Positions 1 to 5,343 of a stretch of DNA of 64,000 nucleotides are shown here, one piece after another. Source of the stretch: a virus. Lineage: Duplodnaviria > Heunggongvirae > Uroviricota > Caudoviricetes. A program made the translations under genes and the position numbers. The stretch's first letter is position 1; each line of letters starts with the position of its first letter. The notes beneath the pieces are model-generated. The model was not told where the DNA came from and made no database searches. It worked only from the letters and a program-made list of their open reading frames with translations. The stretch covers positions 5,905-69,904 of IMG/VR virus record IMGVR_UViG_3300021399_000001; one strand, 5' to 3'.

Positions 1-517
1 TTTTTACATATGGTTCATGCTCTCCAGTTAATGGATTATCATGTGATAATTCATTATCTATTTTACCATAAACTTTTCTTTGTCCAACATCCCTTTCATA
101 TTCATAAATAAATATTTTTTTCTGTGGTGGGAAAATTGGAGTATGATTTAAATAAAAACCATTATTATCATCTAATTCAAAAGGGCCTTCCCTTACTGGA
201 ACAGCGAGAGAAATACCTTTTTGTTTTTCAGTCATATTTGCACTTAATAAAATCCCCATACTAATTGAGGACATAACTCCCTCTGTTAAAGAGAAAGTAA
301 CTTCTGAACGATCTTCCCAAATAACACGCGGCATATTGGACCAACCTCCGCGTGCCATTACAGGGGAATTTCGTTCAGAAAGCAATGAGATATTAACGTT
401 CTCAAAATAAAGAACGGGTTCTCCTTCCTCAAGGCGACGTGCGCCAAATTGCATAGGGACTTTAGCTTTTAATACGACCTCATAAAGTTCTTTTACACCA
501 AAATATTGATCTAACAT
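1..517 (-). CDS. Second tail-tube-like protein (paralog of 1076-2074), truncated by the window edge
   Basis: Not in the ORF track. ATG at 517 after AGGGAG. Manual translation MLDQYFGVKELYEVVLKA...EGEPVLYFENVNIS...ARGGWSNMPRVIWEDRSEVTFSLTEGVMS aligns with tail tube DKYGIKEVANVYFEA...KGDIVLFLDTLKVS...ATGGWGNPKLISWDYGKEITVTLEDALIS. Confidence 0.75.
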   Translation of the reverse strand, partial: MLDQYFGVKELYEVVLKAKVPMQFGARRLEEGEPVLYFENVNISLLSERNSPVMARGGWSNMPRVIWEDRSEVTFSLTEGVMSSISMGILLSANMTEKQKGISLAVPVREGPFELDDNNGFYLNHTPIFPPQKKIFIYEYERDVGQRKVYGKIDNELSHDNPLTGEHEPYVK

Positions 518-560: not shown

Positions 561-601
561 TATTATGTATTTTTAAATTGAGTAGATTAAATGAAATAAT
601 T

Positions 602-1075
602 TTATTCAAGAATTTCAATTTGAATGTAATCTACCCATAAAACTGGGCGACCAGAAGTCCAAATAGTTAATTCAGTTACATTTTCAAGTGTAATATCTCT
701 TTCTGTCAAAGTAATAGGATTACTTGTTACAGTATCTATTTCACTAGCTTCTCCTAAATTATCAACTGTTATAGGCATATTAAGACGATTACTACCGTCT
801 CCAGTTTTATAATTATAATACAAACCGACACTAGGCGATGCGCTTGAACCAGCATACATTTTACCAATAGCATAGTTCATTTGTATGTTACTTGGTTGTT
901 CAAACTTTATAACATGAGAAACAGGATTCGTATCATCACTTAAAAGTGTTTCATTAATAACTATTGGAGAAGTTCTTGGAGCAGTATATTTATAATTAGT
1001 TAAATAATAACCATTATCATCTATACTCCATTTATCTGAATCGCCCATCCATTCTTCATTGAAATTCAGAGCTCT
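602..1075 (-). CDS. In-frame C-terminal extension of the tail tube (beta-rich domain), likely made by UGA readthrough
   Basis: ORF 602-1048 stays open up to the tail-tube TGA (1076-1078) in the same frame, 9 codons upstream of its ATG. No SD before ATG 1048. Confidence 0.6.
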   Translation of the reverse strand, partial: RALNFNEEWMGDSDKWSIDDNGYYLTNYKYTAPRTSPIVINETLLSDDTNPVSHVIKFEQPSNIQMNYAIGKMYAGSSASPSVGLYYNYKTGDGSNRLNMPITVDNLGEASEIDTVTSNPITLTERDITLENVTELTIWTSGRPVLWVDYIQIEILE

Positions 1076-2074
1076 TCAAGAACCAGAGACGATAGAACCC
1101 TTGTCGTCACCAGCATTAGTTTCATCAGCAGCGGCTCCGCCGTAACGGATTAGCTTCATCATTTCCTTATCGCCACGCTCATTATCAGAACGTAGAACAT
1201 TTAGAGTCATTTCAAAAGTAGAAGGATCGCCTTCAGCCTCTAGAGTAATAGTAACCTCAGACTGGACCTTGGCCTTACCAATTACGAACTGGAAGGCTTC
1301 ATCCTTACCAGTAGCCTGAGAACGCATGAAAGTATCGCCAACTACACGATATGTGCCTGGGAAAGTATCAGGAGAAATAGTTACTTCAACAGCACTATCG
1401 ACATTGTTTGTGTCATTATGTACTTCTTCCCAGAAAATACGAACATGATCTCCTTGAATTGGGTTAGCATCGCTAATGCCCATAGCGGTATTATTAAAAG
1501 TTAATACACAATTAGCAGACATTGCATTTACTGCACCAGATTCGCTAGAATATACAATCTGAGTACGACCACCGGCACAAGGACTTGGCTTACCATTGCT
1601 ATCAACACCGCCACCATAGTTAATAAAACGAATTGGATGGCCTGCAGTTGCAGTAGGAGTTAAAGTATTACCAGTAATATGGTCTACTGGTAATGGTAGT
1701 TTACCATCTGCTAACGCAACAACTTCTTCTGTACGACGAACGATAACACTTTCAACCTTTGAATTTTTAGTAGCACCGGCACGATGAATAGCACCACCAA
1801 GCATAAAACGTAAAGATTCAAGAGAAATTAAAGCATCTTCTAGAGTTACAGTAATCTCCTTACCATAGTCCCAAGAAATTAGCTTAGGATTGCCCCAACC
1901 ACCAGTAGCATCGGTAGTCTCAGCAGTTGTTTCAATAGTAGAAACCTTTAGGGTATCTAGGAATAGAACGATGTCACCCTTATAAACATTAGACTTAGGA
2001 TCGTCCTCTAGGGCCTCAAAATAAACATTGGCAACTTCCTTAATACCATACTTATCAAAAATATTAACAGCCAT
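1076..2074 (-). CDS. Major tail (tube) protein
   Basis: 332 aa, strong AGGAGG RBS, GGWGNPKLISWD and LEAEGDPSTFEMTLNVL segments typical of siphovirus tube proteins, located after the neck genes. Confidence 0.75.
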   Translation of the reverse strand: MAVNIFDKYGIKEVANVYFEALEDDPKSNVYKGDIVLFLDTLKVSTIETTAETTDATGGWGNPKLISWDYGKEITVTLEDALISLESLRFMLGGAIHRAGATKNSKVESVIVRRTEEVVALADGKLPLPVDHITGNTLTPTATAGHPIRFINYGGGVDSNGKPSPCAGGRTQIVYSSESGAVNAMSANCVLTFNNTAMGISDANPIQGDHVRIFWEEVHNDTNNVDSAVEVTISPDTFPGTYRVVGDTFMRSQATGKDEAFQFVIGKAKVQSEVTITLEAEGDPSTFEMTLNVLRSDNERGDKEMMKLIRYGGAAADETNAGDDKGSIVSGS

Positions 2075-4596: not shown

Positions 4597-4865
4597 TCAC
4601 TATCTCTCAATTCAAGTGCGCCAACCAAATTCATACATTCGAATATTGTTTTTCTAAAATACTCATATGATAAATGACGCAAAGAATTTAGCTTGCCAAG
4701 TAAGGGCCAATAATTTATACAAGTTGGCCCTAGTCCTTCAAGCTCTATAATAATAGAATCTAAAAATTTTTCCCATTCGCCATTTTTTTCTTTTTCACAA
4801 AGCACACCATATAAACGGCCTTTTAATTTATTTTTGTAGCCGTCAAAAGTAACGTCATAAGGCAT
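4593..4865 (-). CDS. Hypothetical neck-region protein
   Basis: 90 aa ORF overlapping both neighbours in the operon. Confidence 0.55.
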   Translation of the reverse strand: MPYDVTFDGYKNKLKGRLYGVLCEKEKNGEWEKFLDSIIIELEGLGPTCINYWPLLGKLNSLRHLSYEYFRKTIFECMNLVGALELRDSE

Positions 4866-5343
4866 TTTTCTTACCCGCTAATTTTTTAAATAATATAGCT
4901 GGACGCTTTTCGCGCGAACGGTCATAAATACCTTCCGCACGCCGCACGTCATTTGCGATGGAGGCTTCCAACTTATTTAATTTATCCAAATGATTTGCTT
5001 GTGAAAAATCTTTATCTGCATAGAGCTGCCGTATATTCTCCCAACTTGCAATACAACGTTTTACCCATTCATGCTTCATATATAAAGCAAGTAATTGAAT
5101 TTCATCATTTGTTAAATCATCAACAAACTGATACATTTTCAATTCATGTGGATTATCGTTATCGCGAGGCTCAATTTCTTCTCTCTCCAGACTAACGCGC
5201 GGATACTTGAACCTAAAAATTGCGATATTAAGGAGTTCTTGCCAATCCCGCTCAACAATGGCGAGTTCTTCCTCAAGAGTCCATTCATCCGCGGTAATTC
5301 GTGCTAGAAAGGCATCATACACCTTGAGAAAGGGCGTTGCCAT
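4855..5343 (-). CDS. Putative head-tail adaptor
   Basis: 162 aa helical protein two genes after the capsid gene; synteny. Confidence 0.5.
   Translation of the reverse strand: MATPFLKVYDAFLARITADEWTLEEELAIVERDWQELLNIAIFRFKYPRVSLEREEIEPRDNDNPHELKMYQFVDDLTNDEIQLLALYMKHEWVKRCIASWENIRQLYADKDFSQANHLDKLNKLEASIANDVRRAEGIYDRSREKRPAILFKKLAGKKNAL

Follow-up and report, generated by a model that had tools for sequence, protein, structure and literature searches.

Does the tail tube gene of this phage simply end at its stop codon, or do some ribosomes read through that codon into a second coding segment, so that some tube subunits carry an extra domain? An initial annotation of the locus had proposed the latter, as programmed readthrough of a single UGA. 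The window that we analyzed is a 64,000-nt stretch of an IMG/VR record of 184,104 bp. The record has direct terminal repeats, and its 29 tRNA genes include no suppressor. The source virus is a large uncultured long-tailed phage, probably from the rumen. The locus contains the following features (coordinates are positions in the window):

2088-2083, minus strand: strong Shine-Dalgarno (SD) sequence of the tube gene, AGGAGG
1076..2074, minus strand: gene for the major tail tube protein, 332 aa and 35.6 kDa, with its ATG at 2074
1078-1076, minus strand: stop codon of the tube gene (GGT TCT TGA), the candidate leaky stop; the next base is A (UGA-A)
1049..1075, minus strand: nine-codon in-frame spacer, RALNFNEEW, without a stop codon, an alternative start codon or an SD
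602..1048, minus strand: open reading frame of the add-on module, 148 aa and 16.6 kDa from the ATG at 1048-1046, with a TAA at 604-602
580..1079, minus strand: insert of about 500 nt relative to the related locus L006; it opens with the tube stop codon and extends 22 nt beyond that of the add-on
564-537, minus strand: intrinsic terminator with a 12-bp stem, which lies 3' of the add-on here and directly 3' of the tube gene in relatives
1..517, minus strand: start of a tail tube paralog (291 aa, extending beyond the edge of the window) with its own SD; it matches phrog_2729 (1.8e-07)

The layout is as the initial annotation had described it. The sequence 3' of the TGA reads AGA GCT CTG AAT TTC AAT GAA GAA TGG ATG, and the tube's frame stays open behind this single TGA for 157 codons, up to the TAA at 604-602. 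The ATG of the module lies nine codons (27 nt) 3' of the tube's TGA. By calculation, readthrough would join the tube and the module into a protein of 490 aa and 53.5 kDa, which agrees with the product of about 490 aa that had been predicted. We found no terminator between the TGA and the extension: the sole terminator comes after the extension, again as proposed. An error at the TGA can also be considered. However, the assembly is unlikely to have slipped at this codon, because a second, independent contig from a metagenome (L081) matches at 100% identity for 1909 nt, TGA included.

The upstream gene encodes a true siphophage tail tube protein, as had been claimed. It matches phrog_2729 (2e-53), and by tblastn it also matches proteins of large siphophages of Bacillus (Tsamsa-like), Lactococcus (949-like), and Brevibacillus (Sundance) whose annotation is "major tail" or "tail tube protein". 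We modeled the tube protein alone with AlphaFold (AF2), using 44 homologs as input (pLDDT 73). The model matches the cryo-EM structure of the tail tube protein of phage SPR (8ygm_A/8xkn_B; Foldseek E of 1.7e-10) as well as the tube proteins of YSD1, Chi, and JBD30. Synteny across relatives is consistent with this assignment. The GC content of the tube gene (41%, vs. 36% for the genome) and its GC3 are both above the surroundings, which is expected because the protein is very abundant. The C-terminus of the protein (residues 316-332) is rich in G, S, A, and D and is disordered in the model (pLDDT below 50).

The tail tube paralog adjoins the tube gene throughout the tube family, and in about 70 relative loci, tblastn placed it immediately behind the tube's terminator. 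After the paralog comes an open reading frame of more than 1826 aa (window 1-517 together with L083, G000:C1:1-5904). No recognizable G/GT chaperone pair was found between the paralog and this long open reading frame.

Comparison with relatives indicates how the extension arose. L006 is the closest syntenic relative that we compared: at the DNA level, its tube gene is 85% identical and its paralog region is 94% identical. When we aligned the window to L006 with blastn, positions 2174-1080 aligned at 85% identity and positions 579-1 aligned at 94% identity, with nothing aligned in between. In other words, homology ends at 1080, with the last sense codon of the tube gene, and restarts at 579, upstream of the old terminator. 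Judging from this alignment, the insert that carries the module has the tube's stop codon as its very first codon. No homolog of the module was found in 76 relative loci from IMG/VR, and about 150 relatives are without it. In the 76 loci, the stop codon of the tube gene is mostly TAA, often in tandem, and the terminator and the paralog usually follow directly.

In ENA and Logan assemblies, we found homologs of the module that form nine protein clusters, at 62-99% identity, as well as two distant homologs (P0010 and P0011). Within the set of close homologs, 58 of the 148 columns are invariant, which argues that the module is a selected, folded protein. All 10 of the full-length homologs were called as separate open reading frames of 148-164 aa, and all 10 have a Met at the same column as the module's Met, including P0011, which is just 36% identical. 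The N-terminal part contains a conserved motif, W-x-I-D-x-N-x-YYLT-x-Y-x-Y. The GC content of the module is 31%, and its codon usage resembles the background (GC3 of 0.135). When we scanned IMG/VR, JGI metagenomes, GTDB genomes, and GenBank phages for the module, only the identical contig (L081) was found.

Sequence searches of Pfam, PHROGs, and PDB with the module gave no match. In the AF2 model, the module is a beta-sandwich (pLDDT 64), with the first 50 or so residues uncertain. Its structural matches are weak but consistent: they are galactose-binding-like or carbohydrate-binding-module (CBM) jelly-rolls (best Foldseek E of 3e-3; VIA Z of up to 6.1), and they include CBM16, CBM22, CBM32, and CBM35, receptor-binding domains of toxins, and CBMs of tailspikes. 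Hits in the ESM Atlas, which we take as leads only, point the same way. Based on the model, the module is likely to be carbohydrate-binding-like. The extension had been expected to form a beta-rich surface domain, and the AF2 model, at its pLDDT of 64, would fit the beta-rich part of this expectation.

How would the module be translated? The initial annotation had noted that the downstream ATG has no SD, unlike neighboring structural genes, and the numbers bear this out. The duplex energy before the ATG at 1048 is -1.7 kcal/mol, which is close to the median for random positions (-1.3) and far from the median for genes (about -9.6). We also considered 58 pairs of genes on the same strand that are separated by 5-60 nt. 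Just two of these downstream genes have no SD at any candidate start codon. One is the module and the other is a doubtful open reading frame of 41 aa, so the module is the only credible case. As for signals in the RNA, we found no structure around the tube's stop codon beyond what shuffled sequences give (minimum free energy of -17.8 kcal/mol; z = 0.46). A stimulatory 3' context or RNA structure is not obligatory for programmed readthrough.

The in-frame arrangement is not in itself unusual. Among the 242 gene calls in the genome, 16 are followed by an in-frame open continuation of at least 100 codons (15 of them behind a TAA), with the next gene sharing the frame. The in-frame layout alone is therefore within chance expectation. 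Similarly, in four relative loci (L012, L102, L120, and L121), the paralog is accidentally in frame behind the tube's TAA. TGA as such is not a special signal either, because it is the commonest stop codon within the structural gene module.

TGA is also an ordinary stop codon in the rest of this genome, as had been stated for the window. Of the 242 predicted genes, 71 end in TGA; the frame behind it stays open for a median of 5 codons, and long continuations are not in excess. None of the 29 tRNAs has the anticodon UCA. These results rule out a genome-wide reassignment of TGA. TAG is another matter: in-frame TAG codons occur inside the tube genes of 10 relative loci (L018, L032, L052, L053, L062, L066, L117, L122, L149, and L164), and the related genome L085 has a tRNA with the anticodon CUA. 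Part of this clade of phages apparently decodes TAG as sense; the phage in the window does not.

Other members of the tube family have gained add-ons in the same slot. In a set of about 150 relative loci, every beta-rich add-on in this slot is in the -1 frame, overlaps the tube's stop codon, and has no SD; the terminator and the paralog come next. These add-ons are as follows:

L037, 4786-5076: add-on in the -1 frame, with the slippery pattern A_AAC_CCT and then TAA
L075 (the same as L086 and L087), 4834-5247: add-on in the -1 frame, with A_AAC_CCT_TAA as in L037
L115 (also L116), L115:3175-3729: add-on in the -1 frame, with two Big_2 domains (Pfam, 9.8e-24) and no start codon

Because the add-on of L115 and L116 has no start codon, it could be made only as a frameshifted extension of the tube. 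In L037, the ATG of the add-on overlaps the tube's stop codon as TAATG, which is a classic layout for coupled translation. Going by their sequences, we consider the -1-frame add-ons to be candidates for programmed -1 frameshift extensions of the tube. They resemble the module in that they occupy the slot before the tube's terminator, lack an SD, and are beta-rich. They differ from it in that they would need frameshifting instead of readthrough, and their sequences are unrelated: in hhalign comparisons, neither the L037 add-on nor the L075 add-on showed similarity to the module. Since SD-less add-ons in the -1 frame recur in this slot, it seems that this tube family repeatedly gains C-terminal modules that depend on recoding. 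The recurrent add-ons fit the model of chance landings that is quoted in PMC5009743.

The slot has also received inserts of other kinds: among the roughly 150 relative loci, two are of the endonuclease type and one is a duplication of the tube. In L039 and L040 (4917-5708), the slot contains an open reading frame for a putative homing endonuclease of 263 aa. In L079 and L080 (4841-6460), it contains a second tube-like gene of 539 aa with its own SD. In L042 (4673-7427), the tube gene seems to be split into a 5' part of 224 aa, two open reading frames for GIY-YIG-like endonucleases, and a short open reading frame that corresponds to the conserved C-terminus of the tube (..EMMKFIRY..). This is likely to be an intron or an invasion of the tube gene by homing endonucleases.

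We looked for a fused tube-module protein in collections of 5.8 and 1.84 billion proteins. None was found among proteins of 276-2000 aa that share words with the module or in an HMM search over the 1.84 billion representatives. Similarly, more than 6,400 homologs of the tube protein are known from our searches; the best 120 are all 308-347 aa, and none of these 120 is fused. Tube proteins at 98%, 77%, and 73% identity have the same end, KGSIVSGS. One tube protein with this end is on an ENA contig of 2051 nt, and the contig that encodes the module homolog P0009 is equally long. These observations suggest that the position of the tube's stop codon, and perhaps the junction, is conserved, as judged from the ends of the proteins and not from the frame.

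The genome also encodes a tRNA with features that bear on the decoding of UGA:

G000:C1:99990-100063 (L082), outside the window: phage tRNA-Trp(CCA), with a U27.C43 mismatch and with A24 paired to U11

The anticodon stem of this tRNA has 4 bp, and no other tRNA among the 29 is unpinned at the top of this stem. Copies of the tRNA were found in two of the five related genomes that we searched (L084 and L085). Both copies are also unpaired at 27:43 (C.U and U.C), and the four remaining pairs of the stem covary. In E. coli, unpinning 27:43 of tRNA-Trp(CCA) is reported to have raised readthrough of UGA by about 2.5-fold (2026; PMC13092985), and G24A variants of tRNA-Trp had been shown earlier to ease UGA readthrough (cited in PMC13092985). 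That study does not deal with phages, and we found no mention in the literature of a tRNA-Trp with an unpaired 27:43 in phages. Because the phage tRNA-Trp(CCA) is also present in relatives that lack the module, we view it as an enabling background and not as a signal that is linked to the module.

How might these parts work together? We propose that a cassette of about 500 nt, which encodes a beta-sandwich of about 150 residues that is probably carbohydrate-binding, landed exactly at the stop codon of the tube gene. Its location upstream of the tube's terminator makes the cassette part of the late mRNA that is most abundant. UGA is a leaky stop codon that can be read as Trp: in wild-type B. 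subtilis, readthrough of a reporter is reported to reach 6% (PMC7918605). Given a leaky UGA at the end of the late gene that is translated most heavily, the production of some fusion is almost unavoidable. A small share of ribosomes would decode the tube's UGA as Trp, with the host's tRNA-Trp and the phage's tRNA-Trp(CCA), and these ribosomes would pass the nine codons of the spacer and enter the module. With the frame open behind it, misreading of this UGA must in every case yield the 53.5-kDa fusion of 490 aa. The expected tryptic peptide at the junction of the fusion is GSIVSGS-W-R, which would be followed by ALNFNEEWMGDSDK. The fusion would co-assemble with the 35.6-kDa tube protein, so that a minority of the tail's subunits would show the adhesin, with the disordered C-terminus of the tube protein as a potential linker to the module. 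Some free module (16.6 kDa) might also arise by re-initiation at the ATG at 1048. We infer that readthrough may reach a useful level, that virions would contain the fusion, and that the module would bind sugars.

In the main alternative, the module is a small accessory gene in its own right. After termination at the TGA, ribosomes would remain on the mRNA and re-initiate at the ATG at 1048 (termination-reinitiation coupling), and the product would be a free beta-sandwich of 16.6 kDa, which might be a non-covalent decoration of the tail or an adhesin on it, or else a non-virion protein. The shared frame would then be a 1-in-3 coincidence, and in-frame neighbors are common by chance. This reading accounts for the Met that is conserved in all 10 full-length homologs, for the fact that every gene call is separate, and for the lack of fused forms in our searches. 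The conserved motif at the module's N-terminus could be a docking segment, and the TAATG overlap in L037 is what coupling would look like. However, every other credible gene of this genome that lies more than 5 nt from the preceding gene has an SD, and re-initiation at a site that is 27 nt downstream and has no SD would be inefficient; the use of strong SDs by the phage argues that its host depends on them. Also, the add-on of L115 and L116 is in the same slot and does not have any start codon to re-initiate at. We consider coupled translation of a separate gene to be a serious possibility, although somewhat short of an even chance. It is quite unlikely, on the other hand, that the module is a recently gained passenger with hardly any expression and no function in the virion. 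The module's absence from about 150 relatives, its lack of an SD, and its background-like codon usage (GC3 of 0.135) would all fit with a passenger. But at least nine clusters of homologs, at 62-99% identity, have kept 58 invariant columns and the full length, which argues for purifying selection across diverged phages, and the module is located on the most abundant late transcript.

Two other explanations concern the TGA itself. It could stem from faulty sequencing or assembly, or from a new nonsense mutation, and the true gene would then be a single fused one of 490 aa. The open frame would be consistent with this, and nothing more is. The identical sequence in another metagenome contig, the homologs that are always called from the Met as separate open reading frames, the ...KGSIVSGS end shared by tube proteins at 98%, 77%, and 73% identity, and the lack of any fused protein in our searches all argue against it, and we think it highly improbable. 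Alternatively, since some relatives in the clade recode TAG, TGA might be read as sense throughout this genome (code 4 or 25). With 71 of 242 genes ending in TGA, a median of just 5 codons from there to the next in-frame stop, and no tRNA(UCA) among the 29 tRNAs, we give this idea almost no credence.

Returning to readthrough, all of the premises of the initial annotation held up: the gene encodes the tube, the frame behind it is open, the module lacks an SD, the terminator comes after the extension, and TGA is a normal stop codon. The insertion at the stop codon, the SD-less add-ons in the same family, the features of the tRNA-Trp, and the beta-sandwich model also favor readthrough. On the other side are the separate open reading frames with the Met conserved in 10 of 10 homologs, the absence of a fused form from the searches, the absence of RNA structure around the stop codon beyond that of shuffles, and how common the layout is. 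Weighing these, we consider the case for a functional readthrough fusion of the tube and the module to be evenly poised. The more specific proposal, that programmed readthrough of the UGA makes a minor, adhesin-bearing form of the tube at a level that is set by the conserved phage tRNA-Trp(CCA) with its 4-bp stem, is a good deal more speculative, and we think it improbable as a whole.

Extension of the tail tube protein by frameshifting is a known way for siphophages to show a few adhesins along the tail. In the lactococcal 936 group (Skunavirus), TpeX is a carbohydrate-binding module that is added by frameshifting to the C-terminus of only a fraction of the tube subunits, where it functions as an ancillary adhesin for the host (PMC6669499). 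Our case resembles TpeX in that a CBM-type module would be reached by recoding at the 3' end of the tube gene. But TpeX relies on a programmed frameshift and has no sequence similarity to our module, which is in frame behind a UGA and has a conserved ATG. Similarly, SPP1 (gp17.1 and gp17.1*) and the Listeria phages A118, A500, and PSA (with their long tail-shaft proteins) have two forms of the major tail protein due to recoding at the end of the gene (PMC5009743; PMC6669499). As in our proposal, the long forms have a surface beta-domain. However, they arise by +1 frameshifting and have Ig- or FN3-like domains, whereas our case would involve readthrough and a domain that is modeled as a jelly-roll. 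Because the extension is in frame 0, the present case would be a mechanistic variant and not a member of the frameshift class.

For readthrough, the precedent is an RNA phage. In Q-beta, the UGA that ends the gene for the major virion protein (the coat protein) is read by tRNA-Trp at a low percentage, which yields a minor extended protein, A1. A1 is experimentally proven and essential, and its extension has no start codon of its own. As in the tube gene, where 157 codons are open behind the TGA, a single UGA separates two coding segments. The differences are that Q-beta is an RNA phage with a proven A1, while in our tailed phage the extended protein is a proposal and the module has a conserved ATG at its start. 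By analogy, then, the closest systems in function would be TpeX and the long forms of SPP1 (gp17.1*) and the Listeria phages, and the closest in mechanism would be A1 of Q-beta. Our literature search for virion proteins that are made by readthrough in tailed phages found none; the only phage that we found to use readthrough for such a purpose was the RNA phage Q-beta.

If our proposal is true, this would be the first virion protein of a tailed phage that is made by readthrough, and the first with a trans-acting factor that is encoded by the virus. If it is confirmed, then in-frame landings behind a leaky UGA would be used in the same way as out-of-frame landings behind a slippery site, which is what the model of chance landings (quoted in PMC5009743) predicts, and phage genes for tRNA-Trp with a shortened anticodon stem would have a natural role. 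Since gene callers split such products in two, tail adhesins, and with them determinants of host range, may be missed in phages from metagenomes.
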